From assembly GCA_013388645.1 (NCBI GenBank), contig JACAEV010000140.1, positions 9,700 to 73,699 on the forward strand: a stretch of DNA of 64,000 nt, in the 5' to 3' direction. The position numbers were made by a program, and so were the translations under genes. The DNA comes from Syntrophaceae bacterium. GTDB lineage: Bacteria; Desulfobacterota; BSN033; UBA1163. The notes under the pieces are model-generated. The model saw nothing but the letters and a program-made list of their open reading frames with translations. It made no database searches and was not told the DNA's origin. This document shows, piece after piece, positions 42,860-63,644 of the stretch (the stretch's first letter is position 1; each line of letters starts with the position of its first letter).

Positions 42860-42968
42860 AGATCTCAAATTAAATGCAGAAAGAATAGAGGTGGAGAACT
42901 TTTGGGCCTCCGTTGAAGAGGCCCTCTTCATTTTTTAAGGAAAATTTATTAAAGGGAAGGGATCGAAT

Positions 42969-45688: not shown

Positions 45689-46099
45689 TTAATGGTCTTT
45701 TGGGAGTTCGCACAGTTCAATGAGGACGCCGCTTGAAGATTTTGGGTGCACAAAAGCAACTTTGGTGCCATGAGCCCCGGGTCGGGGTTTTTGGTCGATC
45801 AACGTCGCACCTTTCTCAAGATAGGCTTTCACCTCTTTTTCTACATCATCCACTTCAAAACAGATGTGATGAATCCCCTGTCCCTTCGTCTCTAAAAATT
45901 TAACAAGAGGTGAATCTGGCTCCGCAGGCTGAACCAATTCAATATTCGACTCCCCGATCTTAAAAAAACCCACCCTCGTTTTCTGGGCAGTGACCATCTC
46001 CACCCCGGAGAGGGTAAGACCCATCACATTTTGATAGAACTTGGCTGCTTCTTCGATGTTATTTACTGCAATAGCAATATGGTTAATCTTTTTTAGCAT
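45689..46099 (-). CDS. Methylmalonyl-CoA epimerase (VOC/glyoxalase-fold)
   Basis: HIAIAVNNIEEAAKFY...GIHHICFEV metal-binding VOC motifs. ~135-aa length and position in the mutase cluster. Confidence 0.65.
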   Translation of the reverse strand: MLKKINHIAIAVNNIEEAAKFYQNVMGLTLSGVEMVTAQKTRVGFFKIGESNIELVQPAEPDSPLVKFLETKGQGIHHICFEVDDVEKEVKAYLEKGATLIDQKPRPGAHGTKVAFVHPKSSSGVLIELCELPKDH

Positions 46100-46124
46100 T
46101 CTATCATCCTCCTTATTAGTCTAT

Positions 46125-46235
46125 ACGCATAGAGTGAATAGCCGTAGGATGATGGAATGTTGGAATAATGGAATAATGAAAAAACAGCCTTTTATTAAAA
46201 CCCATTATTCCAATATTCCACTATTCCAATTGTAC
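46125..46235. repeat. Intergenic palindromic element family B, second copy
   Basis: ggatgatggaatgttggaataatggaataatg ... cattattccaatattccactattccaat, an imperfect hairpin related to 24085..24175. Confidence 0.6.
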
Positions 46236-46619
46236 ATTTCTATGAATGTATTTAATAATATCTTCGGTGGAGGCGCCGGGTTGAAAGATCTCCCGAATCC
46301 CAGCCTTTTTTAGTCCCGGGATATCATCCACGGGTATAATCCCGCCCCCAAAAACAAGGATATCTTCAGCCTTTTTATCTCTAAGAATCTGAACCACTTT
46401 CGGGAAAAGATTGTTGTGGGCACCGGAGAGGCTGGAGAGACCGACAACATCCACATCTTCTTGAATCGCTGCGTTGGCAATCTGTTCAGGGGTTTGCCGT
46501 ATGCCTGTATAGATCACCTCCATCCCTGCATCTCGAAGAGCTCGTGCAATGACTTTTGCCCCTCGATCATGCCCATCCAATCCTGGTTTTGCGATCAGTA
46601 CTCGGATCTTTCGGGCCAT
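46221..46619 (-). CDS. Methylmalonyl-CoA mutase small subunit, cobalamin-binding domain (stand-alone)
   Basis: [35 protein letters not shown]12-binding DxHxxG motif. RBS GGAGGAG precedes ATG 46619. Confidence 0.8.
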
Positions 46620-46771
46620 TTCTCTCCTCCGTCGAAAGTTCGGAGACAATCATTTTGTAGTTTCTTGGTCTGATAGTCTCACAATCTTTAACTATACGAC
46701 TAATAGACCAATTGACTATGTGACTATGTCACTAATGACTCCGAACTCCCAATTCCGAACTCTGAACTGTT

Positions 46772-48427
46772 TTATCGTTCTTTGTATTCCCCAAACACTT
46801 CTCTTAAAGTATCAGAAATCTCACCTAACGTGGCATAAACCTTGACCGCCTCTAAAATGGGAGGAACCACATTATCCGTCCCTTGAGCGGCTTTTTTCAG
46901 AAGGGCTAAAGTTTCCTTGACTTTCGTATTGTCTCTTTCTTTTTTGACCTTTGCCAGTTTTTCCTTCTGGTATTGTTCTACTTCAGGTTTGATACGAAGG
47001 ATATCTCGAAGAGGTTCCTCTTCAATCTGAAATTGGTTTAATCCGACAATGATTCGTTTCTTGGTTTCAATTTCCTTCTGATACTGATAGGCACTTTCAC
47101 CAATTTCTCCCTGTATAAAACCCGATTCGATGGCTTTGATCGCTCCCCCCATGGCTTCAATCTTTTCAATATATTCCATGGATTTTTTTTCTATCTCATC
47201 GGTAAGGGCTTCCACGGCATAGGACCCTCCCAAGGGATCGATCATATCGGCGACACCACTTTCATAAGCAATAAGCTGTTGGGTTCTCAAGGCAAGCCTG
47301 ACAGAATCTTCTGTGGGCAGAGCATAGGCTTCGTCTCTCGAATTGGTATGAAGGGACTGAGTTCCTCCCAATACAGCCGCCAGAGCCTGGAAGGCAACTC
47401 TCACTACATTGTTATCGGGTTGTTGAGCGGTGAGCGAACAACCGGCCGTCTGGGTATGAAACCGCAACATACACGACTCGTCCTTTTTCGCTTTAAATCG
47501 TTCCTTCATAATTTTCGCCCACAGCCTCCGAGCTGCTCTAAATTTCGCAATCTCTTCGATGAAAGTGTTGTGGCAGCAGAAGAAGAAAGCAAGCCTCGAA
47601 GCAAAAGAATCTACATCCAGCCCTGCCCGAATAGCTGCCTCCACATAAGCAATCCCATCGGCAAGAGTAAAGGCGACTTCCTGGACGGCGGTACAGCCTG
47701 CTTCGCGCATATGATAACCACTGATGCTGATGGTATTCCATCGGGGAACGCGATCTTTGCAAAATGCAAAAATATCAGTGACAATGCGCATCGATTCAAG
47801 AGGGGGATAGATATAAGTTCCCCTTGCTGCGTATTCTTTTAAAATGTCATTCTGAATCGTTCCCTGAAGGACTTCGCTTTTCACTCCCTGTTTTTCCGCC
47901 ACGGCGAGGTACATCGTTAGAAGGATGGCAGCCGTGGAATTGATAGTCATCGAAGTAGAGACCTTATCCAGAGGGATGCCATCAAATAGAATCTCCATGT
48001 CTTTCAAAGTATCAATGGCCACCCCGACCTTTCCCACTTCACCATCAGATAAGGGATGGTCAGAATCATAGCCGATTTGGGTGGGTAGATCGAAAGCCAC
48101 GCTTAAACCGGTTTGGCCATGTTCCAGAAGATATTTGTATCGTTTATTTGTCTCTTCAGGGGTGGCAAATCCTGCATACTGACGCATGGTCCAGAGACGG
48201 CCCCGATACATGGTGGGCTGGACTCCTCGTGTGAAAGGAAATTCGCCAGGAAATCCTAGATCCTCACAATAATCTAAGTCGGCCACGTCCAAAGGAGTGC
48301 AAAGGCGTTTCAATTCAATATGGGAGGTTGTTTTGAAAGAAGGTTCTCGTTCAGGGGCTTTGGAGATGACTTTGTTCAATGTGGTCTTTTCCCACCTTTC
48401 AAATTCTTCTCTGATGTTCTTAGCCAT
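46772..48427 (-). CDS. Methylmalonyl-CoA mutase large (catalytic) subunit
   Basis: 551-aa TIM-barrel subunit with [23 protein letters not shown] and related MCM motifs. Confidence 0.85.
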
Positions 48428-48538
48428 AATTCGCTCCCAGAAAAAGGGGACAGGCTACTTTTTAAAGAACTTACTTCGGGAAAGACTGCATATACTCTTA
48501 TTTCTCATGAAAAAGTAGCCTGTCCCCTTTTTTTATTC

Positions 48539-50113
48539 TTACAGTGGTATATTTCCATGCTTTCGCCAGGGATTGGTATCAACTTTTGTCTTCAAAATAT
48601 CGAGGGCTTGGATGATCTTGGGGCGAGTTTCCTCAGGTTCGATGATCTCATCGACATATCCTAATTCCGCTGCCTTATAGGGGCTTGCAAATTTCTCATG
48701 ATATTCGGCGACGAGTTGCTCGCGTGTCTCCTTAGGATCTTTAGCAGTTTTGAGTTCGTTTCGAAAGATGATATTGACCGCCCCATCTGCACCCATCACT
48801 GCAATTTCGGCAGTAGGGTAACAGTAATTGATATCACCCCGGATATGTTTACTCGACATCACATCATACGCCCCTCCGTAGCCTTTCCGGGTGATGATCG
48901 TGATCTTCGGGACTGTGGCTTCACAGAATGCGTAGAGGAGTTTCGATCCATGTCGAATAATTCCTCTTTCCTCCATATCCATTCCAGGAAGAAAACCCGG
49001 GACATCCACAAAGGTGACCAGAGGGATATTAAAACAATCACAAAAGCGTACGAATCGGCCAGCCTTCACCGAGGAGTCCGGGTCAAGAGAGCCGGCTAAC
49101 CAATTGGGCTGGTTGGCAATGATTCCTACTGGCATACCGTTGTAACGGGCAAATCCGATGACGATGTTCTTGGCCCAATCTTTCTGGACTTCAAGGAAGT
49201 AACCGTTATCCACGGTTGGGACGATCACTTTTTTCATGTCGTAGGCCTTTTTGGAATCTTCGGGGACGGCTGTTTTTAAAGATTCGTCCATTCGATTGGG
49301 GTCATCCGTGCATGCAATGACGGGTGGTTTTTCCCGATTATTCTGAGGGAGAAATCGGAGCAGTTCTTTGGTGAGACGAATGGTATCCTCGTCATTTTCT
49401 CCTGCAAAATGGGCTACACCACTCTTTTCCATATGGACTTTTGCTCCTCCTAAAAGTTCAGAGGTAATGGGCCTCCCATCGGCAGTCTCTGTCTTACCCA
49501 GGGCTGCCCGGATGACATCAGGCCCTGTGATGTGCATATAACTTGTTTTCTTCGTCATTAAAATGAAATCGGTCATGGCAGGGGAATAAACGGCTCCCCC
49601 TGCGCAGGGTCCCATGATGGCAGATATCTGTGGGATCACACCGGAGGCCAATACGTTCCTTAAAAAGATGTAGGCATAGCCTGCGAGACTCTCAACACCT
49701 TCTTGAATTCTTGCTCCTCCGGAATCATTTAAACCGATTATGGGTGCTCCTGTCTTCATCGCCAGATCCATGACCTTACAAATCTTTTCTGCAAAAGCCA
49801 TTCCCAGGGCACCGCCGAATACAGTGAAATCTTGAGAGAAAACATAGGTCAGCCGACCTTCGATCTTTCCATAACCTGTTACCACCCCATCCCCGAAAAA
49901 TTTCTTCTTCTCCATGCCAAAATCGGTGCAACGGTGGGTGACGAAGCGGTCCAGCTCAACAAACGTCCCGGGATCGAATAGAAGATCAATACGTTCACGG
50001 GCCGTCAGCTTTCCATCTTGGTGCTGCTTATCAATTCGCTCCTGCCCCCCTCCCAATAATGTTTCAGCCCTTCTTTTTTCTAATTCTTTACGTATCGCTT
50101 CAATTGACTTCAT
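48539..50113 (-). CDS. Acyl-CoA carboxylase carboxyltransferase subunit (propionyl-CoA carboxylase beta / methylmalonyl-CoA carboxyltransferase 12S-like)
   Basis: 524-aa protein with the N-terminal [13 protein letters not shown] motif and the duplicated crotonase-like carboxyltransferase fold. Confidence 0.85.
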
Positions 50114-50140
50114 GAACGAATTTCCCTCCTACAAAAAATA

Positions 50141-50275
50141 AACTCTAAATCTAAAACGCTAAATCCTAAATAAACTCAAAACTCAAAATCGAAATATCGA
50201 AACACCCCTTTTTGGGTTTAAAGTTTTGGACTTTGGGTTTGTTTAGAGTTTAGGGTTTCGAGTTTAGTGTTTCTT
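50141..50275. repeat. Intergenic palindromic element family A, second copy (core 50238..50273)
   Basis: Left arm is (CTAAAYN)n and right arm is gtttgtttagagtttagggtttcgagtttagtgttt. The right arm overlaps the meaB stop codon. Confidence 0.7.
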
Positions 50276-51217
50276 AAGTTCCTCTGCCATTACCTTTTCG
50301 GCTACAGAATAAGGATCGATTCGACGGTTCATCAGGTCTTCGATGATTTTATCCCATTGTCCTTCTTTTTCCATTTTTTCAATAAAATGGGCCATGACCT
50401 CCGTCTCAAGAATTTCTAAAAAGGTGGTCTTGGTTCTTTCTCTCAGTTTTTTTTCCAAGGCTTGGTTTTGCTCCAACGCCTGTTTATGACGGTAGATTCC
50501 ATAAACGAGTTCAAAAATCCCTTTTCCTAATATTGCCTCGGTTTTAAAAATGGGAGGCTCCCAACCATCCTCTCTTTTTCGACCCATTTCAAGAACCATC
50601 CGGAGATCTCGTTCCATTTTATCTGCCCCTTCCCGATCACATTTATTGATGACAAAAAGATCTCCAATTTCAATGATCCCAGCCTTAATGGCCTGTATGT
50701 CGTCTCCTAATCCTGGGACGAGGATGACAATGGAGGTGTGGGCGGTATTGACAATCTCCACCTCATCCTGTCCTACGCCCACAGTTTCAACCAGGATGAT
50801 ATCTTTTCCCATGGCATCCATGACATTAATAATATCTTGAGTCGAACGGGTCAATCCGCCCAAGCATCCTCGCGTCGCCAGGGAGCGAATAAATACCCCT
50901 TCGTCCGTGGCGTGGCGTTGCATCCGGATTCGGTCTCCTAAGATCGCACCGCCGGTGAAGGGGCTGGTGGGATCAACCGCCACAATTCCAACGGTTTTTC
51001 CTTCCTTGCGGAAGATATCCACCATTTTGTCAACGATGGTGGACTTGCCTGAGCCCGGTGGACCCGTGATCCCAATAATGTAAGCTCTCCCCGTCTTTGG
51101 ATAAAGTTCCTTTAAGGGTTCAAGTGCGCTGGGCATCCGATCGTCAATATCCCTCATCAATCTGGATGCCGCCCGAATATCCCCCTCTAAAATTCTTTGA
51201 GCTATACCCATAGGCAC
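50264..51217 (-). CDS. meaB: MeaB/ArgK methylmalonyl-CoA mutase-associated GTPase
   Basis: GITGPPGSGKST P-loop and the ArgK-family layout. Confidence 0.85.
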   Translation of the reverse strand: MPMGIAQRILEGDIRAASRLMRDIDDRMPSALEPLKELYPKTGRAYIIGITGPPGSGKSTIVDKMVDIFRKEGKTVGIVAVDPTSPFTGGAILGDRIRMQRHATDEGVFIRSLATRGCLGGLTRSTQDIINVMDAMGKDIILVETVGVGQDEVEIVNTAHTSIVILVPGLGDDIQAIKAGIIEIGDLFVINKCDREGADKMERDLRMVLEMGRKREDGWEPPIFKTEAILGKGIFELVYGIYRHKQALEQNQALEKKLRERTKTTFLEILETEVMAHFIEKMEKEGQWDKIIEDLMNRRIDPYSVAEKVMAEELKKH

Positions 51218-51417
51218 TTCAATATAGCAAAACTTTTTCTAAGTCTCAAGGAAATTTTAAATATAAAAATATTCAAATTTTGAGAAACCATAGCTTCACA
51301 TTTCTCCTATATTTTTAAGAAGAAAGAACAGAGGATTATCATTTAAAAGTCTATGTGGGAAAGAGAAAATTAGAGATCGATGGTGCTGATTGCTAAGATT
51401 TGAAGGCTAAAAGAGTC

Positions 51418-52371
51418 TTATTTTTCAGATCCCTCCTTTTCCCCCCTTCCAGGTTTACGTTTGAACAAGAAACCAAGTGACTTTTTAATTCCGTCAGTTG
51501 CTGAAAAATGCCCAACGGCATTTTTCATGTCAGTGATCTTAGAGAAGTTTTCAAAGATGATCTCTGGGGTGATGTCATCTGAGGGATCAAACCTAATGCC
51601 TTGCCCTTCTACTATTTGCACCCGCGAGAAATAACCGCCTCCAGCAGAAAGGATATAGCCGGTGGATTGGCACTGATCGCTACAAAGATAGGCTACCATG
51701 GCCGTAACCAGTTCAGATCTAAGAAAGGGGGAGATTTCCTTGGGAAAGAAACCTGAAGGCTCGTTTAGGCGGGTGGCGGCCGATGGAGCGATCGTATTGA
51801 TGAGAATGTTGTATTTCTGGGCTTCAAGCTTCAGGGAGTTCATGAACCCAATGATACCCATCTTGGCTGTAGAGTAATTTGTCTGTCCGAAATTCCCAAA
51901 CAGCCCAGCGACAGAGGTGGTCATGACGATTCTGCCATAGCTTTTTTCCTTCATCACGGGGAAGGCAGCCCGTGCGGTGTAAACCGTTCCCATCAAATGG
52001 ACCTTCATAACCAGATCAAAGTCATTCAATGACATTTTTAAAAATGTCTTATCTCTGAGGATTCCAGCGTTGCATACGAGGATATCGATGGTACCGAAGT
52101 TATCCAGAGCGGCCCTTATAATATTCTGTGCAGCTTCTGGGTCCGCTACGCTGTCGAAATTGGGCACTGCTTTCCCACCAGCAGCTTGGATTTCCTCTAC
52201 CACTCGCATTGCCGCCGTTTTGGATTGACCAACTCCATCCCAAGACCCTCCAAGGTCGTTGACGACGACCTTGGCTCCGCGGGAAGCCAGAAATATTGCA
52301 TAACTCCTTCCTAAACCCGCCCCTGCCCCGGTTACCACGGCCACCTTGTCTTTGAAACTAATATACATCAA
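51418..52371 (-). CDS. Short-chain dehydrogenase/reductase, MFE-2-type 3-hydroxyacyl-CoA dehydrogenase-like
   Basis: VAVVTGAGAGLGRSYA and the N-terminal layout of the peroxisomal multifunctional-enzyme SDR domain. Confidence 0.65.
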   Translation of the reverse strand: MMYISFKDKVAVVTGAGAGLGRSYAIFLASRGAKVVVNDLGGSWDGVGQSKTAAMRVVEEIQAAGGKAVPNFDSVADPEAAQNIIRAALDNFGTIDILVCNAGILRDKTFLKMSLNDFDLVMKVHLMGTVYTARAAFPVMKEKSYGRIVMTTSVAGLFGNFGQTNYSTAKMGIIGFMNSLKLEAQKYNILINTIAPSAATRLNEPSGFFPKEISPFLRSELVTAMVAYLCSDQCQSTGYILSAGGGYFSRVQIVEGQGIRFDPSDDITPEIIFENFSKITDMKNAVGHFSATDGIKKSLGFLFKRKPGRGEKEGSEK

Positions 52372-53872: not shown

Positions 53873-55333
53873 TTATCTTTCCCCCCTTTTCATGGGTCTC
53901 GCCTTCCAGAAATAATTAACAACATCTCTTTTTGGGTCATAATATTTTCGCCGAAAACTCATCGTTACAGGCATTCCTACGGATAACATATCTAAATCAC
54001 AATCTGTAAAATCAAACATAAATCTTCCACCCATATTGAATTCAACTGATCCATAGATGGCAGGGGGATGATATGAAGCAGCCAGGTTATCTCCGGTATA
54101 GCTGACAATGTGTCCTTTCTTGTCCGAAAAAAGGAAGTCTTCCATCTCAGAATCTCCCCTACAATCAGGGTTGACACAGATGTTCTGAGGTGGGTATTGA
54201 ACCGTACCGCACGTCTTGCATTTGGAACCCCAAAGACCTAAGATTGCTTTTCTTTTCCTCCAATTAAGGGACCAACGGGGCCACTGATCCACCTCGGAGC
54301 GCAATCCCAATTCTCCAGGCATTATTTCGCGCCAGATTAAATACTTACCGTATTTGTCAAGGTATTTTTTTTGGGCTAAATATTCAGAAATTCCTTTCTT
54401 GCCTCTTTTGTTCTCAATGTTTCCCGTAATCTCAAAGTAAAGGGCATCACATCCATTTCCAAAACTGACCACCATGATTTTGTCGCCCGGTTTAGCTTCT
54501 TCTAAGGCATTTACCAGCATGATTAAAGGGTGAGCGGTCCCTACATCTCCAATCTCAGCAAGAAGATTATTTTGCTCCATTTTTGGCGAGATATTTAATA
54601 TTTTGTTCAATTTTTTCCGTTCCGCTTCATAGTGACAAGGGTAGATGATTTTGGAGAAGTCCGAAATTTTTAATTGGGATTTTTCTAAAAGGCCTTTAAC
54701 GACCTCTGGAATCAATGTTTCATATCCCATATCTCGAACCCAACGATCCTCCCATTGCCGATCATATTTAGCGAATCCACCTCGGTAGTGATCCACAAAA
54801 TCATAAGTGGTAGAATAACTTCCCTTGAATTCAGCAATCACATCTTGGTCGCCGACCAGCAAGGCAACGGCTGCATCCCCAAAGATCATTTCTTGGATAG
54901 AACCAGGTTTGCCAAGACGACAATCAGAAGAAGAGACGATGATAGGATTGATTCTTTTTGATTCGACCCCCTCCAATGCCGACAAAAGAGCTGTTGTGCC
55001 AGCTTTAAGAGCGCCACCAAAATCTGCTGCTCTAATAGGGTCATTTAATGCTAAGGCCGCTGAAATAATCCCTGCGTTTAATCTCTCTTTATAAGGCGGA
55101 CTTGTCGAAGCAAAGTACACGCCTTGTATCCGGTACCTTTCTATACCCTCTAAACAATCAATTCCGGCTGCTACGGCCATAGTGATGGTGTCTTCATCAA
55201 AGTTTGCTATGGCTTTTTCCCCCTTGGCCTGAGTTATCACGGCAGGGTTTATCCAGCCCATCGCTTCCGATATATCCTTCCGTTTTAATCGATACCAAGG
55301 GATATACCCACCATAAGAACAAATTCCTAGCAT
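53873..55333 (-). CDS. HMG-CoA-synthase-like condensing-enzyme domain fused to DUF35 (zinc ribbon + OB fold)
   Basis: N-terminal ~350 aa are HMGCS/FabH-like. C-terminal CKTCGTVQYPP...CVNPDCRGD zinc ribbon and OB region. Abuts the thiolase gene with no gap. Confidence 0.6.
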   Translation of the reverse strand: MLGICSYGGYIPWYRLKRKDISEAMGWINPAVITQAKGEKAIANFDEDTITMAVAAGIDCLEGIERYRIQGVYFASTSPPYKERLNAGIISAALALNDPIRAADFGGALKAGTTALLSALEGVESKRINPIIVSSSDCRLGKPGSIQEMIFGDAAVALLVGDQDVIAEFKGSYSTTYDFVDHYRGGFAKYDRQWEDRWVRDMGYETLIPEVVKGLLEKSQLKISDFSKIIYPCHYEAERKKLNKILNISPKMEQNNLLAEIGDVGTAHPLIMLVNALEEAKPGDKIMVVSFGNGCDALYFEITGNIENKRGKKGISEYLAQKKYLDKYGKYLIWREIMPGELGLRSEVDQWPRWSLNWRKRKAILGLWGSKCKTCGTVQYPPQNICVNPDCRGDSEMEDFLFSDKKGHIVSYTGDNLAASYHPPAIYGSVEFNMGGRFMFDFTDCDLDMLSVGMPVTMSFRRKYYDPKRDVVNYFWKARPMKRGER

Positions 55334-55438
55334 TTCCTTTCTCCCAATGATTGAGAATGAATATTCATTAGTGAACTTAACCTCACTCTACCATTTAAAC
55401 TATAAAGCATCGAATTTTTTTCTTTCCTTCCAACTTTT

Positions 55439-56380
55439 TTAATTTTTATCAAGGCGAACTTCATGAATGAAGTCTTTGATTGATCTTTCCAAATCATAAC
55501 TTGGCTTATATCCGGTTTCGGTGCGAAGCCGGGAATCATCAAGATTGACGGGAATGGTTTTAACGATTTCAACGCTGTTTAAATTCGGATGAAAACTTAT
55601 TTTTGCATTGGGGATAATAGACCGAATCATTTCTACCAAATCTCTAGCAGCAAGTTTGATTCCAGACAAATTGTAGTTGATGGTCTTAATCTGTTCTTTA
55701 GGGGTAAATATTAGAGAACACAAGGCTTCTATTCCATCCTTATAGTACAGTACTGGCAAAATGGATTCCTCCTCGATCCACATTTCAAAGGGTTCTCCCT
55801 TGGCCGCTGCTTCAATCACCATTGGAATACATTGTGCGACCCCAGGTGTCTTGACTCCGGGGCCAATGATCTGGGGAAAACGAATACTTCTGAAGTCGAG
55901 ACCAAAGCGTCTTCGGTAAAAGGTCCCCAAATGTTCTCCGAACACCTTGGTTACACCATACATCCCAATGGGTCTTTGGATTGTTTCATCATCAATGACT
56001 TGCGGAAGATGGAGTCCATAGCTGGCAATCGAGGAGGAAAATATAAACCTCTCGACGTTACATATTCTTGCAGCTTCAAGGGCGTGAAAGATTCCACGGA
56101 CGTTTACCTCATAGGTCGCCCAAGGATCCTCCTCAGAGGGGGCAGATAGTCGAGCGGCCAAGTGAATAAGCCATTTTATATTATTATCCTTTAAAGCATT
56201 GATCAGATGTGCCTGACAAGTTACACTCCCAGGGATGAAAATGACTTTATCTAATTTTTTTTGTTTATTCAAAAGATCTGATTGAATATCCATTATAAAA
56301 ACCGAATGGCCTTTATCTAAAAGGTTTTTAGATAGTTTTAAACCGATAAAACCGCAACCGCCTGTAATGAGAATATTCAT
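55439..56380 (-). CDS. NAD-dependent epimerase/dehydratase family protein
   Basis: MNILITGGCGFIGLKLSKNLL Rossmann fold. RBS GGGGAAG precedes ATG 56380; the track ORF has a 51-codon upstream extension. Confidence 0.7.
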   Translation of the reverse strand: MNILITGGCGFIGLKLSKNLLDKGHSVFIMDIQSDLLNKQKKLDKVIFIPGSVTCQAHLINALKDNNIKWLIHLAARLSAPSEEDPWATYEVNVRGIFHALEAARICNVERFIFSSSIASYGLHLPQVIDDETIQRPIGMYGVTKVFGEHLGTFYRRRFGLDFRSIRFPQIIGPGVKTPGVAQCIPMVIEAAAKGEPFEMWIEEESILPVLYYKDGIEALCSLIFTPKEQIKTINYNLSGIKLAARDLVEMIRSIIPNAKISFHPNLNSVEIVKTIPVNLDDSRLRTETGYKPSYDLERSIKDFIHEVRLDKN

Positions 56381-56605
56381 CTTTCTTCCCCTTTTCTTTC
56401 TGAATAAAGCCGTATTGTTAAAAAATGTTTTTTTAATTAAATCAACTTGCACCCATTTTAAGGTTCTTGCAACCTCCGAATATGTAACAATGGCATACGC
56501 ATCGGACCTTGGTGAAACCAATATTTCCCACACTCATAAAACCCATTGGTTCCCTTTTTCCTACGGACTTTAATTTTCATCTTAGAAATTTTCCAATTTA
56601 ATGAC

Positions 56606-57889
56606 TCATCGAGAAAATAGGTTTGGGAGCCAAGTTGATAGCCATGGAAACAATGTGACTAAAATCAAAGTGAACACTAACATGAAAAAGTAAGGCACAT
56701 AGGACTTACACGTATCAGCGAAAGAGATCTTGAACATCCCGGAAACCACAAATATGTTAACTCCTACAGGGGGAGTTAAAAAGCCGATGTAAAGATTTAA
56801 CAAGAATACGCTGGCAAAATAAATCTCATCAATAGAGAATTTAATATAAAGTTGTTTTAAAATAGGGACAAGGATAACTGTAGCTGAAAGAACATCAACT
56901 AAACATCCAGTCACCAACAGAAATAAATTATTGAATAGCATGAATATCCATTTGTCCCGTACCATACCAAAAATTTGTTCGGCCCATAATTGAGGAATTT
57001 GCTCCAGGGATAAATACCGAGCCAGTACCGAGGCTCCCGAGACAAGAATAAGAACGACAGAGGTCGTTATCCCGGTTTCAACGGCCAGCATAGGGATTTG
57101 CCGAAATTTTAACCCTCGGTGGATGAAAAGCTCCACACAGACCGCATAGGCTGCAGCAACAGCCGCTGCTTCTGTCACCGTAAAGATGCCTCCATAAATT
57201 CCACCAAATATGATGATGGGCATTCCTAAAGCTGTCATTCCATTTTTTATGGACTTAATCATTTTTAAAAAATCAGGTTTTTGGAATTTCTGGTCCGGGA
57301 AAAATTTCTTACCCTTAAAATAAATATAGATGGAGAATAAAATCACAATAATAATTGCTGGGAGTACCCCTGAGAGGAATACTTTCATGACGGATACTTC
57401 GGCAACAAGGGCATAAATAAGGCCCGGGATAGTAGGAGGAATTAACATCCCTAATAAGGCGCTAGGGCCCAGAATTCCGCCGACAAAAGCTTTAGACCAC
57501 CCACGGCTTATCAAGGCCGGATACATAATTCCACCAATAGCTGCGAGAGTGGCAATGTCCGACCCTGTAATAGAACCAAAAAGGGCACAGCCAATGACCG
57601 TAGCAATCGCCAGACCAGAGGGGAAAAAGCCTACACAGGCATCTGCTATATCCAACAATTTTTTGGCCAATGTTCCTCGAGCCATGATGTTCCCTGCTAA
57701 TATAAAGTAGGGGGCAGCCGAATAGGAGTAGGGTTGAATACTGTAAAACATGTTTTGGACAACCACTCCCAGGGGAATATGTGCGATAAAGGCATAGACA
57801 AAGATGGAAGTGGCAATCATGGCAAAAGCCACGGGAACGGATATGAACATCATCATAACCATAACAAGGAGGACAATCAGTCCTTCCAT
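56606..57889 (-). CDS. dctM: TRAP transporter large permease (DctM family), second system
   Basis: 427-aa polytopic DctM-like protein. Confidence 0.8.
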   Translation of the reverse strand: MEGLIVLLVMVMMMFISVPVAFAMIATSIFVYAFIAHIPLGVVVQNMFYSIQPYSYSAAPYFILAGNIMARGTLAKKLLDIADACVGFFPSGLAIATVIGCALFGSITGSDIATLAAIGGIMYPALISRGWSKAFVGGILGPSALLGMLIPPTIPGLIYALVAEVSVMKVFLSGVLPAIIIVILFSIYIYFKGKKFFPDQKFQKPDFLKMIKSIKNGMTALGMPIIIFGGIYGGIFTVTEAAAVAAAYAVCVELFIHRGLKFRQIPMLAVETGITTSVVLILVSGASVLARYLSLEQIPQLWAEQIFGMVRDKWIFMLFNNLFLLVTGCLVDVLSATVILVPILKQLYIKFSIDEIYFASVFLLNLYIGFLTPPVGVNIFVVSGMFKISFADTCKSYVPYFFMLVFTLILVTLFPWLSTWLPNLFSR

Positions 57890-57979
57890 TATTTATCTCC
57901 TCCTTTATCAGGCAAATTGATCGAAAATGGAGACACCTGGATCAATTTTTTCCAGCAAGTCATTATCCGTTTTCTACAA

Positions 57980-58474
57980 TCATTTGCTCTTTTCATCCCC
58001 TTCACTTAAGGGTTTGAGAATTTTTATAAAATTTTCAGCAAACCGAAAAACGGCTATAAGGTAACCCAGAGGCATAACGATCAGGAGTATTCCCACGGGC
58101 AACCAATACAGAGATGTTAGCCTCTGGTCCCTTTTTAGGAAGTCGTCAACAAATTCGAAAGAAAGAACGAGAAGGATCGTCGTTACTCCTAAAGTCAATA
58201 GGTTCGCTACGAAATTCAAACTCTTTTTAGTCTTGGGAATAAATTGGATCACCATGTCAACACGCATGTGACTCCCTATGCGGGCACCAGGGCCGATTCC
58301 AATCGTGATGATAGCTAACAAAAGAAAACCGGCTATTTCCTCAACCCAACTCAAAGAGCTGCCAATGACATAGCGAAAAAAGACACCAACGACAGAAATT
58401 ATGACACTTCCCATAACGGCCGAGGCTAAAAAGGCATGCTCACACACCTCTACCCATCGACTGACAATCTTCAT
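57980..58474 (-). CDS. dctQ: TRAP transporter small permease (DctQ family), second system
   Basis: 164-aa four-helix protein between dctP and dctM. Confidence 0.7.
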   Translation of the reverse strand: MKIVSRWVEVCEHAFLASAVMGSVIISVVGVFFRYVIGSSLSWVEEIAGFLLLAIITIGIGPGARIGSHMRVDMVIQFIPKTKKSLNFVANLLTLGVTTILLVLSFEFVDDFLKRDQRLTSLYWLPVGILLIVMPLGYLIAVFRFAENFIKILKPLSEGDEKSK

Positions 58475-58598
58475 TTTTTCCCCTGTGGTTTTTACCTACC
58501 CAATTGACAATGTTGCCTGACTCCTCTCATTCTAAAATTATATTACGTCCGCGGTGTCCAAATCTACCCTTCATTTAAAGAGAGTATTTTAACATCAA

Positions 58599-59645
58599 TT
58601 ATTCTAATATTTCTTTATCATAATCACGGCCAAGAGATTTATATACAGTTCTCATAAACTGCCGGCCATCATGGGATTTCTCATCAACTTTTTTCTCATG
58701 ATCAATCACTACTTTTTTAGTTGCCGCAATCCAGCGAGCCTTTTCTTGTTGACTAATTGTCCAGACCTTAACTCCCTTGCTTTTTAGGAAATCAATTGCC
58801 TTGTCATCGAAATCCTTTGACTCTTTTTGCTGTTTAAAACAGGCTTCAACGGCTGCATCAATCACGATTTTTCTTAAGTCCTCAGGCATACTGGCGAGGG
58901 TTTTTTCTCTCATCCAAAAAATATAAGTCCCGAAAAGATGATCAGAGACTGTAATATTATTAATAACTTCGTGGAAACGATTTGCCACCATAATTCCAGG
59001 AGGTGTTGTGAGTCCTTCTATCACTTTTTGTTGGATTGATTGGAAAACCTCTGGAAAGGGAAGGGGAGGAGCATTCATGCCCAGAGCTTCAAGCGTACCT
59101 TTAATTGTATATGCTTGAGCTGCCCTAAGTTTTCTTCCTTTACATTCTTCCAAAGTTCGAATAGGTGGATCTTTGTAAGCCAAGGCGTTAAATCCATAGG
59201 GTATCCATCCCAAACCAATCAATCCATTACCTTTAAGGCTTTCCAGTATGAGTTTGGCACCTTCACTTCCAACCCACTTGTTGAAAAAAGTATCCCAATC
59301 CTTGATTAGAAAGGGGGTATACATTGTCATTGGTTTGGGGTCGAGCGAACCAGCAAGAGCACAACTTATAGTAGCAAATTGAAGTGTATTATTATTGATC
59401 TGGCTCACAATATCCATTTCTCCCCCTACTTGGCCACTATGGTACCATTTCCCTTTAATCTTCCCTTCTGATTTAGTCTCCAAGATTTTTAGAAATACTT
59501 CACCGCCTCTTGCATAAGGATGGGTTAAAGCCCCTGCGGTGGCACCTCTTAGTTCATAGACCTCTACGGCCTCACCCGAAGACGCCCAAAAGAATCCCAA
59601 TGTGATGATACATACCCAAGACAATATAATTCTTTTTGTTTTCAT
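58599..59645 (-). CDS. dctP: TRAP transporter substrate-binding protein (DctP family), second system
   Basis: Signal peptide MKTKRIILSWVCIITLGFFWASSGEA and the DctP fold. Confidence 0.8.
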   Translation of the reverse strand: MKTKRIILSWVCIITLGFFWASSGEAVEVYELRGATAGALTHPYARGGEVFLKILETKSEGKIKGKWYHSGQVGGEMDIVSQINNNTLQFATISCALAGSLDPKPMTMYTPFLIKDWDTFFNKWVGSEGAKLILESLKGNGLIGLGWIPYGFNALAYKDPPIRTLEECKGRKLRAAQAYTIKGTLEALGMNAPPLPFPEVFQSIQQKVIEGLTTPPGIMVANRFHEVINNITVSDHLFGTYIFWMREKTLASMPEDLRKIVIDAAVEACFKQQKESKDFDDKAIDFLKSKGVKVWTISQQEKARWIAATKKVVIDHEKKVDEKSHDGRQFMRTVYKSLGRDYDKEILE

Positions 59646-59841
59646 CTTAAGTCTCCTTTTTCTTTAAGGGTTATATGCAACTCCGATAAAGATTTTTGAA
59701 TAAATTCTTCTTAAAATAAATTCTTGGATCCCTTTTCGTTGAATTAACCTTCACCTCCTTTCATCATTTTCTAAAATTTAAACCTATGTATGCGACAACA
59801 ATTATCATCCTGTTGGTGAATTTTCTAAGAATTCAATATTC

Positions 59842-60249
59842 TTAGTCTCTTTGTACCAACTCAATGTAAACACCGTTGAACTCTTCCGGCTTGATCACAG
59901 CGACCATTGAACCCCTCGATCCTCTGATAATCTGATCCCAGACAAACTCTACTCCTTTTGAGCGAAGCTCCTGAAATGTTTTATCGAGATCTTCCACTTC
60001 AAATGCAATATGGTGGATCCCTTCGCCCCGTTCCTTGAGGAAATCGGCGGCGAGACCCGTATCGCCCGTTGTTTGGACCAATTCTATGTTGGTTTCCCCG
60101 ATTGGAAGGAAAGCCACTCTGTTGACAACGTTTTCTACTTTGACCTCTTCAATTTCTTTTATCTTCAAGCCCAAAAGAGATGTGTACTTCCTTATCCTTT
60201 CTTCCAAGTCCTTTACAACGATGCCAATATGCTCAATCTTTATTAACAT
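59842..60249 (-). CDS. VOC-family protein, methylmalonyl-CoA-epimerase-like (second copy)
   Basis: HIGIVVKDLEERIRKY...GIHHIAFEV. Paralogue of 45689..46099. Confidence 0.6.
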   Translation of the reverse strand: MLIKIEHIGIVVKDLEERIRKYTSLLGLKIKEIEEVKVENVVNRVAFLPIGETNIELVQTTGDTGLAADFLKERGEGIHHIAFEVEDLDKTFQELRSKGVEFVWDQIIRGSRGSMVAVIKPEEFNGVYIELVQRD

Positions 60250-60258
60250 CCATCGCTC

Positions 60259-61839
60259 CTATTTCTGAAATTCCCTTCTTAACCTGTAACCTGCTTTCTC
60301 TCGATCCCATGCATTAGCGATTCCTCTTCTTCGAAGTTCAAATTTCTGGGCCCGATCCGTAGGTGTCTTGGGAAACTCTTTCAAAAACTCCACATATCTG
60401 GGGACCATGAAATAAGCCATTCGCTCTTCACAGAATTTTATTAAGTCTTCAGGTTTAAGCTCCTTGTTGGGTCGAAGGATTATATAAATCTTGACATCGT
60501 CCTCACCAAGTTCAGACGGAACTGCTATAGCTGCAGACTCTAATACGCTTGGGTGGGAATTAACTATCTTTTCAATATCAAATGAAGATATGTTTTCTCC
60601 CCGGCGCCGGATGCAATCCTTCATACGGTCCACAAAATAAAAATAACCGTCCTCATCCTTGTATCCTCTATCCCCGGTATGGAACCATCCTCCTTCCCAA
60701 GCTTCTCTGGTTTTGTCAGGTTGCTTATAATACCCTAAGAACATGGAGTAAGGGATTTTTTCTTTCACTACAATTTCACCGGTTTGGCCCGCAGGAACTT
60801 CACGATTGTTTTCATCCCATATCGTGACTTCAGCAAAGCTGGTTGGTTTCCCGATTGATCCTACCCTAATATTATCTGGTGGATTACAGAGAGGAATCGC
60901 TCCGTTTTCAGTAGCACCATAACCCTCAATAATCTTTACATTGAACCGTTTCTCGAAATCCAACCAGATTTCTTTAGGGGCAGCCCCCCCAAAGGCAATT
61001 CGGGCAGGGTTATCATTATCGTCTTCACGCTCTGGTTGCTTCATCAGTATAGTAAGTATCCCACCGATGTAATTGAAGACAGTGGCTTTATATTGACGTA
61101 TTTCTGCCCAAAAACGAGAGGCCGAAAATTTCTCTCTTAGGACATAGGGACGCCCTGAACACAGAGCCCCCATGGTCGAATACATTTGGGCGTTCGCATG
61201 GAAAAGGGGTAGTGTGGTAAAGAAAATATCATCATCCCGATATTGAAGGATCTCATCGACCCAGACTTGAGCCGTGTTGATGTAATTGAAGTGGCTAATC
61301 ACGGCACCTTTTGGTGGGCCTGTAGTCCCTGAAGTATAAATGATTCCAAGGGGATCTCCATCCTTTATTTCTATTGTTGGTGGTTCTTTCTCTTCTGCTT
61401 TTTCCATGAGGTTTTTCAAAGAGTGAAAGTTCCCAGGTAGCGGAGCACCATCGTTATGTAAGATTTTCTGTTCAATGACTAGTAGATCTTTCTCAACAAA
61501 TGCATAAGCATCATAGAAACGCTCATTCACCACAATCAATTTTGAATCGGAATGATTAATGATATATCTTAATCCATCTCCACGAAGGTTAAAATTCAGA
61601 GGTACCATCACACCACCAATTTTTGCGAGTCCAAACCATAGATAGACGAATTCGGGGCAATTGGGAAGAAGAAAGCATACATGGTCTCCTTTTTTTACAC
61701 CCAACTCACGAAATAAATTGGCTGCTTTATTTACATTCTGATCTAACGTTGCAAAGTTAATAATCTGATCTCGAAAATATATAAAAGGTTCCCCTCCGTA
61801 ATTTTCCGCTCTGCTTTCTAAAAGCTTTTTAATTCTCAT
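60259..61839 (-). CDS. AMP-dependent acyl-CoA synthetase/ligase
   Basis: IIYTSGTTGPPKGAV AMP-binding motif and the ANL-superfamily layout. Confidence 0.8.
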   Translation of the reverse strand: MRIKKLLESRAENYGGEPFIYFRDQIINFATLDQNVNKAANLFRELGVKKGDHVCFLLPNCPEFVYLWFGLAKIGGVMVPLNFNLRGDGLRYIINHSDSKLIVVNERFYDAYAFVEKDLLVIEQKILHNDGAPLPGNFHSLKNLMEKAEEKEPPTIEIKDGDPLGIIYTSGTTGPPKGAVISHFNYINTAQVWVDEILQYRDDDIFFTTLPLFHANAQMYSTMGALCSGRPYVLREKFSASRFWAEIRQYKATVFNYIGGILTILMKQPEREDDNDNPARIAFGGAAPKEIWLDFEKRFNVKIIEGYGATENGAIPLCNPPDNIRVGSIGKPTSFAEVTIWDENNREVPAGQTGEIVVKEKIPYSMFLGYYKQPDKTREAWEGGWFHTGDRGYKDEDGYFYFVDRMKDCIRRRGENISSFDIEKIVNSHPSVLESAAIAVPSELGEDDVKIYIILRPNKELKPEDLIKFCEERMAYFMVPRYVEFLKEFPKTPTDRAQKFELRRRGIANAWDREKAGYRLRREFQK

Positions 61840-63624: not shown

Positions 63625-63644
63625 ATTCAATTAGGTAAGCCGTC

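Follow-up and report, generated by a model that had tools for sequence, protein, structure and literature searches.

The locus considered here raises the question of what role a thiolase, encoded directly after an HMG-CoA-synthase-like protein fused to a DUF35 domain, might play in a bacterial gene block that ends in the methylmalonyl-CoA pathway. Within the window, by which is meant the whole 64-kb stretch of DNA that was analysed, a list of open reading frames combined with Pfam and NCBIfam scans confirmed 14 consecutive minus-strand genes from 61839 down to 45689, in the order originally predicted, and the domain assignments of that prediction all agreed with Pfam, NCBIfam and solved relatives. 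Every enzyme type in the block has already been described. It appears fairly probable that this block of an uncultured Syntrophaceae bacterium consists of two catabolic modules, which lead from TRAP-mediated uptake through ligation, oxidation and thiolysis to succinyl-CoA, with the fusion acting as a non-synthase partner of the thiolase.

Gene layout and the upper module

The spacers, from ligase to epimerase, measure 9, 196, 124, 90, 222, 105, 0, 295, 200, 150, 111, 152 and 121 bp. The short gaps of the original prediction are therefore borne out in part, with gaps of up to 295 bp; tight coupling is limited to two junctions, ligase-VOC (9 bp) and fusion-thiolase (where the TAA of the fusion abuts the ATG of the thiolase and a Shine-Dalgarno sequence lies within the 3' end of the fusion).

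The block opens with an ATP-dependent acyl-CoA ligase of the PRK06155/CaiC-like type (60259..61839; GenBank NWG03499.1; Pfam AMP-binding 269 bits), which scores 526 bits against NCBIfam PRK06155, under the cutoff of 722, and is 100% identical to a Syntrophaceae MAG protein. It is followed by a VOC-fold paralogue of methylmalonyl-CoA epimerase (59842..60249) that reaches 106.7 bits against TIGR03081, short of the 114.95 cutoff, and shares 39% identity with the block's own epimerase; the ligase and VOC genes recur as a pair in L031, the nearest relative, and in L120. The TRAP transporter consists of the solute-binding protein DctP (58599..59645; Pfam DctP 178 bits), the small permease DctQ (57980..58474; Pfam DctQ 77 bits) and the large permease DctM (56606..57889; Pfam DctM 316 bits, TIGR00786 332 bits). 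The best solved relative of DctP, 7bbr, reaches only 114 bits, too little for a ligand to be inferred from it. Next comes an extended SDR of the NAD epimerase/dehydratase family (55439..56383; Pfam Epimerase 130 bits), whose best solved relatives are of the L-threonine-3-dehydrogenase type (3a1n 146 bits, 4yr9 133 bits); the open reading frame extends to 56533, and its start was placed at the ATG that agrees with 313-aa orthologues. After the fusion and thiolase genes, the module closes with a second SDR (51418..52368), and here the earlier label of MFE-2-type was borne out, as its solved relatives (2et6 426 bits, 1gz6 and 1zbq 268 bits each) are (3R)-hydroxyacyl-CoA dehydrogenase domains of MFE-2. 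There are also natural fusions of pseudo-HMGS, DUF35 and MFE-2-type SDR, with or without SCP2 (e.g. P0250), in which the SDR domain is 55% identical to that of the window.

The predicted divergent regulators are present on the plus strand, as a sensor histidine kinase with GAF, HisKA_3 and HATPase_c domains in Pfam (62044..63624) and a NarL/GerE-type response regulator (63642..64000; Response_reg 116 bits). The latter is cut by the window end and is complete, at 218 aa and with a GerE domain, in an identical longer contig (L001). The pair also adjoins ligase orthologues in L031 and L119, and an alignment of these two loci with the window revealed a conserved element of about 55 nt in the kinase-ligase divergent spacer (61989..62043, no strand assigned). 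This element occurs as a single copy in the window and is a candidate operator or promoter.

The thiolase and its fused partner

The gene at 53873..55333 (GenBank NWG03493.1) encodes a pseudo-HMG-CoA synthase (residues 1 to about 340) fused to a DUF35 zinc-ribbon/OB domain (about 355-486), an assignment that draws on bit scores against solved homologues, namely PhlA (5m3k_A, 138 bits), archaeal HMGS (6esq_I, 107 bits) and archaeal DUF35 (6esq_E, 65 bits). The synthase-like half is thus nearer to PhlA than to the archaeal enzyme, and the best Foldseek matches of a model of the fusion were again PhlA, then archaeal HMGS and MucA, which at a pLDDT of 65 is supportive only. The catalytic E-C-H-N tetrad of archaeal HMGS has been defined (PMC12960953), and in the alignment to 6esq_I its members E82, C114, H238 and N270 correspond to T77, L109, P232 and D263 of the fusion. 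This loss is family-wide: none of the 120 closest homologues has the Glu, the Cys or the His, and among 129 fused representatives, reaching down to about 31% identity, Glu and Cys were each found in none and His in one. Conversely, the zinc-ribbon residues Cys372/375/386/391 are invariant among those 120 homologues. Judged by its residues, the HMGCS-like half is catalytically dead, and since the catalytic Glu, Cys and His have been lost the fusion would be a scaffold or CoA-binding partner and not a synthase.

The thiolase itself (52667..53872) is of the SCP2/archaeal-ACAT type, scoring 638 bits against NCBIfam PRK06157 (cutoff 403); its closest solved relatives are 7yvy (187 bits) and archaeal ACAT 6esq_A (175 bits), ahead of BbsB (140 bits) and PhlC (68 bits). 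Its Cys88, His296 (in HDCF) and His346 (in GHP, at 344-347) are intact, and the HDxF and GHP/GHA motifs are present in 24 of 25 partner thiolases. By these motifs the thiolase appears to be a live enzyme.

The original prediction had likened the pair to the archaeal thiolase/HMGCS/DUF35 channelling complex and to Bbs-type thiolases. Taken literally, as a complex converting acetyl-CoA to HMG-CoA or as a benzoylsuccinyl-CoA thiolase, this is highly improbable. Homology to all three parts of the Methanothermococcus complex and the GenBank name of the fusion, 'hydroxymethylglutaryl-CoA synthase family protein', speak for it, but replacement of the tetrad (E82C/C114G/H238Q/N270D) in the archaeal complex abolishes HMG-CoA formation (PMC12960953), so the change from E-C-H-N to T-L-P-D contradicts an HMG-CoA-forming complex here. 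Moreover, no mevalonate-pathway gene is present in the window, the BbsB model, which has a cutoff of 750 bits, gives 138 bits, and bbs neighbours are absent.

As for the wider distribution of these genes, the block in its entirety is syntenic in the nearest lineage alone; only the fusion-thiolase pair is widely conserved, mostly amid beta-oxidation genes, as in Desulfatibacillum AK-01. Among 27 genome loci the two genes are adjacent wherever both fall inside the DNA examined, and a member of the pair detected alone is located at the end of its contig. In a count over 29 loci, the genes nearby include SDR (12), crotonase (11), 3HCDH (7), acyl-CoA dehydrogenases (7 and 5) and MaoC/MFE-2 hydratase (3).

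The methylmalonyl-CoA genes and their link to the pair

The lower module begins with MeaB, the G-protein chaperone of B12 mutase (50264..51217; TIGR00750 352 bits, cutoff 241), which is 83% identical to its L031 orthologue across the 52 residues compared. An acyl-CoA carboxyltransferase of the PCC-beta/12S/MmdA type follows (48539..50113; Pfam Carboxyl_trans 657 bits; PCC beta 7ybu 680 bits, transcarboxylase 12S 1on3 554 bits), at 792 bits under the 999 cutoff of TIGR01117 mmdA. The mutase is split, as predicted, into a catalytic subunit that lacks a B12 domain (46772..48427; Pfam MM_CoA_mutase 778 bits) and a stand-alone cobalamin-binding subunit (46221..46619; TIGR00640 174 bits) in which the DxHxxG motif reads DGHDRG. 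The last gene encodes methylmalonyl-CoA epimerase (45689..46099; TIGR03081 154.9 bits, cutoff 114.95). The predicted absence of biotin carboxylase and BCCP holds over the whole 64-kb window in a Pfam search of all open reading frames of at least 110 aa, and since the same stretch has neither a biotin carrier nor a 5S subunit, it does not encode the carboxylation step in full.

Whether the two modules belong together is a separate matter. They could be unrelated neighbouring operons, with a regulated uptake and thiolysis unit (ligase to SDR) upstream of a methylmalonyl-CoA operon with a housekeeping role in a syntroph that metabolises propionate or odd-chain compounds, their shared strand being coincidental. 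The gap ahead of MeaB is 200 bp and AT-rich, and the operator-like element has no second copy there. Lower-module spacers are strongly structured, unlike those of the upper module (folding z of -4 to -5.8 versus -1.0 to +0.4), and the carboxyltransferase-mutase spacer holds a long terminator-like hairpin (48441..48532, minus strand; inverted repeat I1), whose stem of 23 bp is perfect and lies between an A-run and a U-run (MFE -40.7 kcal/mol, z -5.6); promoter and terminator scans performed no better than shuffles. In addition, L031 carries 3.6 kb of additional genes between the SDR and MeaB. The structured spacers, the hairpin and this insertion mean that the modules may be independent units, and near the pair a mutase is lacking in the majority of loci (roughly 27 of 32 lineages). 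On the other hand, the order of upper module then MeaB is kept in L031 despite the insertion, and in L028, L036/L037 and L017 the pair is accompanied by genes for the mutase, B12 subunit, carboxyltransferase and VOC protein, arranged in differing orders. The thiolase-methylmalonyl-CoA link of the original prediction thus recurs in independent gene orders, and as at least three other lineages, each with its own arrangement, have the mutase, carboxyltransferase and epimerase beside the pair, chance adjacency would not explain it. In peroxisomes, moreover, SCP2-type thiolases and MFE-2-type dehydrogenases are the enzymes that free propionyl-CoA from 2-methyl-branched substrates. Two unrelated operons are therefore an unlikely explanation.

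Somewhat less likely still is a scenario in which the methylmalonyl-CoA genes act on the primary substrate and not on propionyl-CoA. An imported substituted succinate or malonate (for example methylsuccinate or ethylmalonate, or an alkylsuccinate that hydrocarbon degraders have released) would be ligated, epimerised by the VOC protein, rearranged in its skeleton by the B12 mutase with MeaB, and relieved of its carboxyl group by the carboxyltransferase through removal or transfer, before the SDR and thiolase completed a round of beta-oxidation. Such a combination of enzymes has been proposed to process (1-methylalkyl)succinates in anaerobic alkane degraders. Translational coupling joins the ligase to a methylmalonyl-CoA-type epimerase paralogue, the DctP family is classically dicarboxylate-binding, and a carboxyltransferase that has no biotin carboxylase anywhere within 64 kb is consistent with decarboxylation or transcarboxylation. 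In L036/L037 and L028, one operon joins CoA-transferases, carboxyltransferase, acyl-CoA dehydrogenase, SDR, 3HCDH, crotonase, racemase and a VOC protein with the pair, and the mutase and B12 subunit are divergent, under a GntR regulator. The mutase, however, has residues that fit methylmalonyl-CoA itself, namely the Tyr in RQYAGF, the Arg in AARGTYIYP and the YH shared with the human and P. shermanii MCMs; in the alignments, 21 residues and GYHMREAG read as in human MCM, and HcmA differs in having Ile, Asp and Gln. In its signature residues the mutase is of the methylmalonyl-CoA type. The terminal epimerase clears its equivalog cutoff, and neither a glycyl-radical enzyme nor an acyl-CoA dehydrogenase or hydratase turned up in Pfam scans of the 64-kb window.

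The proposed pathway and known systems

In the two-module reading that we favour, the upper module, under control of the divergent GAF-kinase/NarL-type pair, would import a carboxylic acid by the TRAP transporter and convert it to a CoA thioester by the ligase, and the coupled VOC paralogue might set the configuration at C2, which is a guess. The MFE-2-type dehydrogenase would oxidise the 3-hydroxyl, perhaps, as a further guess, assisted by the threonine-dehydrogenase-like SDR, and the 3-oxoacyl-CoA would be cleaved by the thiolase in complex with the fusion encoded upstream. The lower module would then carry propionyl-CoA from thiolysis to succinyl-CoA, with the biotin-carrying partner of the carboxyltransferase encoded elsewhere. 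We infer the formation of the complex, the thiolytic direction, the propionyl-CoA product and the substrate.

The original outline of uptake, activation, shortening and methylmalonyl-CoA conversion remains the most economical one, but beta-oxidation-like shortening is incomplete as encoded, since Pfam scans of the block found neither acyl-CoA dehydrogenase nor enoyl-CoA hydratase. A short beta-hydroxy acid with a 2-methyl branch or an odd chain (for example 3-hydroxy-2-methylbutyrate or 3-hydroxyvalerate) would need neither enzyme and is our guess for the substrate, in keeping with the ligase orthologue of Bacillus tianshenii, which lies in a permease-thiolase-ligase-SDR operon that likewise lacks a dehydrogenase and a hydratase.

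All three parts of the Methanothermococcus complex are homologous to those of the window (thiolase 175, HMGS 107 and DUF35 65 bits). The ACAT/HMGS-DUF35 of P. fluorescens cleaves acetoacetyl-CoA and does not make HMG-CoA (PMC12960953), and it has the same features as the window pair. Complex formation and the substrate range of the thiolase are extrapolated from this distant characterised member. The fusion-thiolase pair agrees with a class of bacterial ACAT/HMGS-DUF35 systems, described in 2026, in which thiolysis takes place and HMG-CoA is not formed.

Gene content of the block and its surroundings

The block at 45689-61839 (minus strand) is real and coherent, and is made of known kinds of genes, namely an ACAT/HMGS-DUF35 pair, an MFE-2-type dehydrogenase, a TRAP system, and a split methylmalonyl-CoA mutase set. 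The gene calls, order, and strand of the original prediction were all confirmed by the ORF list, translations, and Pfam and NCBIfam scans; its sole inaccuracy was to call the gaps short, as the spacers of the minus-strand block measure 0-295 bp. The upper module consists of an acyl-CoA ligase (60259-61839), a VOC-fold protein (59842-60249), the TRAP components DctP (58599-59645), DctQ (57980-58474), and DctM (56606-57889), an extended SDR of the NAD-epimerase/dehydratase family (55439-56383), an HMGCS-like/DUF35 fusion of 486 aa (53873-55333), a thiolase (52667-53872), and a further SDR (51418-52368). The lower module, likewise on the minus strand, comprises MeaB (50264-51217), a carboxyltransferase (48539-50113), the mutase catalytic subunit (46772-48427), a stand-alone B12 subunit (46221-46619), and a methylmalonyl-CoA epimerase (45689-46099). 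Divergent from the block are a GAF/HisKA_3 kinase and a response regulator (62044-64000), the GerE output domain of the latter being visible in L001, a contig identical to the window but longer. The block proteins are 100% identical to the GenBank entries of a Syntrophaceae MAG, and the fusion is listed there as NWG03493.1, a ‘hydroxymethylglutaryl-CoA synthase family protein’.

In the lower module, MeaB (TIGR00750, 352 bits), the B12 subunit (TIGR00640, 174 bits), and the epimerase (TIGR03081, 154.9 against a cutoff of 114.95) all scored above their NCBIfam cutoffs, and the DxHxxG motif of the B12 subunit reads DGHDRG. The best solved relative of the mutase by score is HcmA, the 2-hydroxyisobutyryl-CoA mutase (588 bits, against 522 for human MCM). 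This match initially suggested a 2-hydroxyisobutyrate pathway (HcmAB, MeaH, and a ligase), which the ligase, MeaB, 3-hydroxyacyl-CoA dehydrogenase, and thiolase would fit. At the discriminating positions, which we take to be Tyr89, Arg207, and Tyr243-His244 in MCM (P. shermanii numbering) and Ile90 and Asp117 in HcmA, the mutase has the Tyr of RQYAGF, the Ala of SVAFD, the Arg of AARGTYIYP, and YH, together with GYHMREAG as in human MCM, and thus differs from the Ile, Gln, and Asp (in STDFD) of HcmA. By sequence, then, it bears methylmalonyl-CoA mutase residues where the two enzymes can be told apart, and the 2-hydroxyisobutyrate pathway was rejected because of these residues and the presence of both a carboxyltransferase and a bona fide epimerase. 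A literature search for signature residues of ethylmalonyl-CoA or alkylsuccinyl-CoA mutases gave nothing usable.

The carboxyltransferase is PCC-beta-like (680 bits, with 554 bits to the transcarboxylase 12S subunit), and its sequence would fit carboxylase, transcarboxylase, and decarboxylase alike. The reported absence of biotin carboxylase and BCCP genes held for the full 64 kb, as Pfam scans of all ORFs of at least 110 aa found neither these nor any Biotin_lipoyl, CPSase/ATP-grasp BC, or HMGL-like (5S) domain. Within the 64 kb the carboxyltransferase is the only part of a carboxylase or transcarboxylase, and genes for the biotin carrier, BC, or 5S components may lie elsewhere in the genome.

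Further groups of genes lie outside the block. A plus-strand cluster at 39477-45631 converges on the block, ending 57 bp from the epimerase stop, and encodes another organic-acid module: a GntR/FCD regulator, a TAXI-type solute-binding protein (NMT1_3), an MmgE/PrpD-family protein, a GlcD-like FAD oxidase, and a CCG/Fe-S protein. PrpD-family proteins also have ties to the chemistry of propionate or itaconate. A second TRAP DctPQM system closes a longer plus-strand run (16711-31442) that begins with another GntR/FCD regulator and continues with 2-oxoacid:ferredoxin oxidoreductase subunits, including a Fer4_20/Pyr_redox_2 protein, a 225-aa protein without a Pfam match, CoA-transferase A/B, and two DUF4388 genes that flank a Cache/HAMP protein. 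On the minus strand, 33324-35240 and 36223-38753 contain genes for a tungsten-type aldehyde:ferredoxin oxidoreductase and for DUF6125, TrkA_N-like, and URO-D-like (methyltransferase-type) proteins, and a LarA-family (lactate racemase-like) gene at 15250-16587 adjoins one for a molybdopterin-oxidoreductase-domain protein (14471-15112). At 16-7560 a sulfatase-domain protein is followed by a NifU-like protein and three proteins of the radical-SAM type, of which one has a SPASM domain; together they may constitute a sulfatase-maturation or peptide-modification set. Across the window no RNA family or riboswitch reached the Rfam gathering thresholds, and promoter and terminator consensus scans gave counts not above those of shuffled sequence.

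Probable linkage of the upper and lower modules

The persistence of the block can be followed through the loci of its relatives. The nearest of these, L031-L035 and L040, in which the fusion is 83-88% identical, retain the kinase and regulator together with the gene series that leads from ligase to SDR. A 3.6-kb insertion comes after the SDR in L031, with a 3-hydroxyisobutyrate-dehydrogenase-like gene, an SDR remnant, another SCP2-type thiolase, and an unfused DUF35 gene. The remnant, a 77-aa ORF (L031, 14664-14897) sharing 55% identity with residues 229-302 of the MFE-2-type SDR, is a duplicated C-terminal SDR fragment marking an insertion or rearrangement scar between SDR and MeaB. Since MeaB follows the insertion (83% identity across 52 residues before the contig ends), the upper-to-lower order persists in the nearest lineage. 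In the more distant loci L028, L036/L037, and L017, mutase, B12 subunit, carboxyltransferase, and VOC epimerase genes occur beside the fusion and thiolase in differing orders and orientations, and this repeated independent association supports a functional link of the pair to the lower-module genes. A metagenome scan anchored on the SDR turned up only some six close relatives and did not find the full block a second time.

Against a single operon stand the many loci of the pair, the majority, that have no mutase and the 200-bp gap before MeaB. The spacers of the two modules also differ in predicted structure. The distal spacers of the lower module (48428-48538, 46620-46771, and 46100-46220, minus strand) form very stable hairpins with z values of -4 to -5.8, that between carboxyltransferase and mutase (48428-48538) having a perfect 23-bp stem flanked by A7/U5 (MFE -40.7, z -5.6), and all eight spacers of the upper module are unremarkable (z -1.0 to +0.4). 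The hairpins are perhaps attenuators or REP-like elements, or serve as stabilisers between cistrons. Immediately upstream of where the kinase gene starts, an element of about 55 nt (61989-62043) that includes GCTACCCAGAAGTGGGGATG and AAAACCCTTGCTTTAGAGGATTT is conserved in the window, in L031, and in L119, a locus with an orthologous ligase, the other spacer sequence having diverged. An operator or a promoter could lie here, or a 5' leader. As no second copy was found in the window, an operator shared by both modules was rejected. Taken together, the hairpins, the spacer element, the gap before MeaB, and the mutase-less loci lead us to describe two modules. A rival view, that two unrelated operons lie side by side, would accommodate the same observations, and is in our estimation rather unlikely given the order kept in L031 and the recurrent association in other loci. 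We prefer the reading that the upper and lower modules are probably functionally linked, whether as one transcript or as two.

The fusion and thiolase in a catabolic setting

The fusion (53873-55333) combines an HMG-CoA synthase fold that has lost its catalytic residues with a DUF35 domain. Among solved proteins its N-terminal 340 residues are most similar to PhlA of the Pseudomonas PhlACB system (138 bits), with lower scores for the HMG-CoA synthase from the archaeal Methanothermococcus complex (107 bits) and MucA (65 bits), and its last 130 residues correspond to the archaeal DUF35 subunit (6esq_E, 65 bits) and to the Pfam domains zf-ChsH2 and OB_ChsH2_C. In alignment with the archaeal synthase, Glu82, Cys114, His238, and Asn270 correspond to Thr77, Leu109, Pro232, and Asp263; these four residues are the E-C-H-N tetrad as defined in PMC12960953, and replacing all of them abolishes HMG-CoA formation. 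None of the 120 closest homologues (64-88% identity across Desulfobacterota) has the Glu, the Cys, or the His at these positions, and the zinc-ribbon cysteines (Cys4) of their DUF35 part are invariant; such levels of identity point to strong purifying selection on the fusion. The wider family (577 clusters at 50% identity, E <= 1e-30) gives the same picture, as the 129 full-length fused representatives of 50%-identity clusters, reaching down to ~31% identity, include none with the Glu or the Cys and one with the His. Judged by these alignments, loss of the tetrad is not peculiar to the Syntrophaceae genome, and 128 of the best 150 family representatives share the length and full-length alignment of the fusion. 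An AlphaFold model from a shallow alignment (pLDDT 65, pTM 0.56) returned PhlA (E 1.7e-18), archaeal HMGS, and MucA as best folds in Foldseek, which is consistent with the PhlA/HMGS fold suggested by sequence and adds little to it.

The thiolase (52667-53872) retains the nucleophilic Cys88, HDCF at 296, and GHP at 345-347, and scores above the NCBIfam PRK06157 threshold (638 against 403 bits); its closest solved relatives are archaeal-type thiolases (175-187 bits, with 175 for archaeal ACAT 6esq_A). Its ATG directly follows the stop codon of the fusion, the Shine-Dalgarno sequence lying within the 3' end of the fusion gene. Across 27 loci of GTDB genomes the two genes are adjacent and co-oriented wherever the sequence covers both, and lone members occur at contig ends.

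When 369 ORFs neighbouring the pair in 29 loci were clustered and cluster representatives checked with Pfam, the recurrent neighbours, with the number of loci for each, were classical SDRs (12), crotonase-type hydratases (11), 3-hydroxyacyl-CoA dehydrogenases (7), acyl-CoA dehydrogenases (7+5), classical thiolases (4), MFE-2-type hydratases (3), and free DUF35 proteins (3). The pair of Desulfatibacillum AK-01 lies behind a sigma-54 activator, between two acyl-CoA dehydrogenases, an SDR, and a MaoC hot-dog pair. Natural fusions extend the association: one family representative of 911 aa (P0250) joins pseudo-HMGS and DUF35 to an MFE-2-type SDR, 55% identical to the window SDR, and to SCP2, another of 800 aa (P0261) adds an SDR, and a third of 722 aa (P0251) adds SCP2 domains. 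By Rosetta-stone logic they link the fusion to the dehydrogenase reaction as well as to lipid-carrier domains. Such context would put the complex where beta-oxidation ends, at its dehydrogenase and thiolase steps, and the neighbour and natural-fusion data together suggest that the pair is a working catabolic module and not an unrecruited intermediate.

The operons of the recurrent type found in L036/L037/L028 run from CoA-transferase III, a carboxyltransferase, and a long acyl-CoA dehydrogenase through the fusion, thiolase, SDR, 3HCDH, and crotonase to an Asp/Glu-racemase-family protein, an SDR, a VOC protein, and CoA-transferase III, with a GntR regulator, mutase, and B12 subunit divergent from them. 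This gene set resembles one proposed for alkylsuccinate processing.

As to the substrate, the Pfam scan found no acyl-CoA dehydrogenase, hydratase, or family III CoA-transferase in the block. The SDR (51418-52368) is of the MFE-2 (3R)-hydroxyacyl-CoA dehydrogenase type by its solved relatives, and the extended SDR (55439-56383) resembles L-threonine 3-dehydrogenases (146 bits), enzymes that oxidise a 3-hydroxy acid. The VOC-fold protein after the ligase (59842-60249) is a methylmalonyl-CoA epimerase paralogue, 39% identical to the block epimerase and just under the equivalog cutoff. It accompanies the ligase in L031 and in a further locus, L120, as well. Because the block contains neither acyl-CoA dehydrogenase nor enoyl-CoA hydratase, it is most simply matched by a substrate in which a 3-hydroxyl (or 3-oxo) group is already present, and a 2-methyl or odd-chain structure would explain both the epimerase paralogue and the propionyl-CoA module. 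We therefore suggest, tentatively, a substrate with these features.

The best model for the ligase (60259-61839), PRK06155 (generic ATP-dependent acyl-CoA ligase), scores below cutoff (526 against 722). The carnitine/crotonobetaine ligase of the JGI names was rejected, as the CaiC-type model NF005947 (PRK08008) gives 407 against a cutoff of 651, and CaiB, CaiD, and CaiA genes are absent. In L119 the ligase orthologue adjoins thiolases and DUF35 genes together with the same kinase/regulator pair, and in L121 of Bacillus tianshenii it belongs to a minimal permease-thiolase-ligase-SDR operon. DctP (58599-59645) has as its best solved relative 7bbr, a putative TRAP solute receptor, at only 114 bits, which gives no ligand.

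A rearrangement of substituted succinates or malonates, in which mutase and carboxyltransferase act on the primary substrate, would agree with the coupling of ligase and epimerase, with the DctP family, and with the L036-type operons; the MCM signature of the mutase speaks against it, and we regard it as improbable. To return to a 3-hydroxy or 3-oxo substrate, one may speculate further that pseudo-HMGS/DUF35 is no evolutionary leftover. It would instead be the scaffold that organises a metabolon of dehydrogenase and thiolase, with which anaerobic Desulfobacterota process hydroxy or 2-methyl-branched acyl-CoAs. Joined by the ligase-coupled epimerase paralogue, as a candidate 2-methyl-3-oxoacyl-CoA or substituted-malonyl-CoA epimerase, and by the threonine-dehydrogenase-like SDR, it would make up an uncharacterised pathway by which a beta-hydroxy acid from the environment yields acetyl-CoA and propionyl-CoA. 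We regard this proposal, too, as improbable.

Comparison with described systems

The original prediction had likened the pair to the archaeal thiolase/HMGCS/DUF35 channelling complex and to Bbs-type thiolases. All three folds are indeed homologous to those of the archaeal complex: the thiolase is closest to the archaeal type and has HDxF, and the DUF35 part has the Cys4 zinc ribbon and OB fold. The window fusion differs in that the defining catalytic tetrad is missing, DUF35 is fused and not free, and the setting is catabolic and not that of mevalonate synthesis, with no HMG-CoA reductase or mevalonate kinase detected by Pfam in the whole window. For these reasons channelling to HMG-CoA is impossible, and the archaeal analogy fails. 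The PhlACB and MucABC C-acetyltransferases (PDB 5m3k, 9vbo) provide, in PhlA, the best solved relative of the pseudo-HMGS, likewise without the tetrad. However, HDxF is missing from PhlC and MucB but present, as HDCF, in the window thiolase, which reaches only 68 bits against PhlC, and Pfam found no PKS/NRPS machinery in the window, neither type III PKS nor NRPS-PKS genes lying near the pair.

BbsAB of Geobacter metallireducens (PDB 7pxp) and the steroid side-chain systems Ltp2/ChsH2-DUF35 and Sal/Shy also pair an SCP2-type thiolase-fold enzyme with a DUF35 partner that it needs, and also occur in beta-oxidation-like catabolic operons. They differ from the window pair in having no pseudo-HMGS domain, and Ltp2 and Sal are Cys-less aldolases, whereas the window thiolase retains its Cys. 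The resemblance to BbsB itself is distant (140 bits in the PDB search, and 137.8 against a cutoff of 750 for the equivalog model NF053628), and bbs-type partners are missing from the block, so that a Bbs-type assignment did not survive. Homology of the folds notwithstanding, the sequences thus contradict a true HMG-CoA-forming or Bbs-type complex, which must be considered highly improbable. 

The lower module is akin to the methylmalonyl-CoA clusters of propionate-metabolising anaerobes, its MeaB, mutase, B12 subunit, and epimerase passing thresholds or bearing the expected signatures, but its mutase is split into two polypeptides and the biotin carrier and partner subunit are absent within 64 kb. 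The upper module recalls the peroxisomal system of MFE-2 and SCPx, with its MFE-2 (3R)-type SDR, SCP2-type thiolase, and fusion relatives that carry SCP2 domains. In the peroxisomal beta-oxidation of 2-methyl-branched acyl-CoAs by MFE-2 and SCPx thiolase, release of propionyl-CoA is the expected outcome. The window system is by contrast bacterial, made of separate polypeptides, and without an MFE-2 hydratase in the window, and it has a pseudo-HMGS/DUF35 scaffold where the SCPx thiolase bears an SCP2 fusion.

The closest described counterpart is the bacterial ACAT/HMGS-DUF35 class (PMC12960953, Nat Commun 2026). It is described as the dominant class, with 1,001 of the 1,030 mined loci in bacteria where genes for HMGS, ACAT, and DUF35 co-localise, and these 1,001 have no secondary-metabolism machinery adjacent. 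Its P. fluorescens member (PfACAT/HMGS-DUF35) has a fused HMGS-DUF35 without the tetrad and a thiolase that retains Cys, HDxF, and GHx; it turned acetyl-CoA into neither HMG-CoA nor acetoacetyl-CoA, and cleaved acetoacetyl-CoA thiolytically (PMC12960953). In its sequence the window pair has every feature of this class, taken here from the published description: HMGS-DUF35 in one polypeptide, loss of the tetrad, retention of thiolase Cys/HDxF/GHx, and absence of PKS/NRPS neighbours. Since it belongs with this class and departs from the archaeal, PhlACB, MucABC, and BbsB systems, the architecture had been recognised correctly and the functional analogue wrongly.

Aside from this context of the thiolase class, the locus is ordinary anaerobic acid catabolism, and the added value is modest. 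It defines operons and a candidate two-component regulator for experimenters, and cautions annotators against reading ‘HMG-CoA synthase family protein’ in such genomes as a sign of mevalonate synthesis. PMC12960953 gave the complex no pathway, left its physiological role open, and termed it an ‘evolutionary intermediate’. The difference is that the Desulfobacterota pairs, that of the window included, lie in catabolic operons of the beta-oxidation type, are occasionally fused to MFE-2-type dehydrogenase or SCP2 domains, and repeatedly neighbour B12 mutase, carboxyltransferase, and epimerase genes, a context that puts the class in the working catabolism of anaerobes, as a widespread Desulfobacterota module recurrently tied to propionyl-CoA metabolism.
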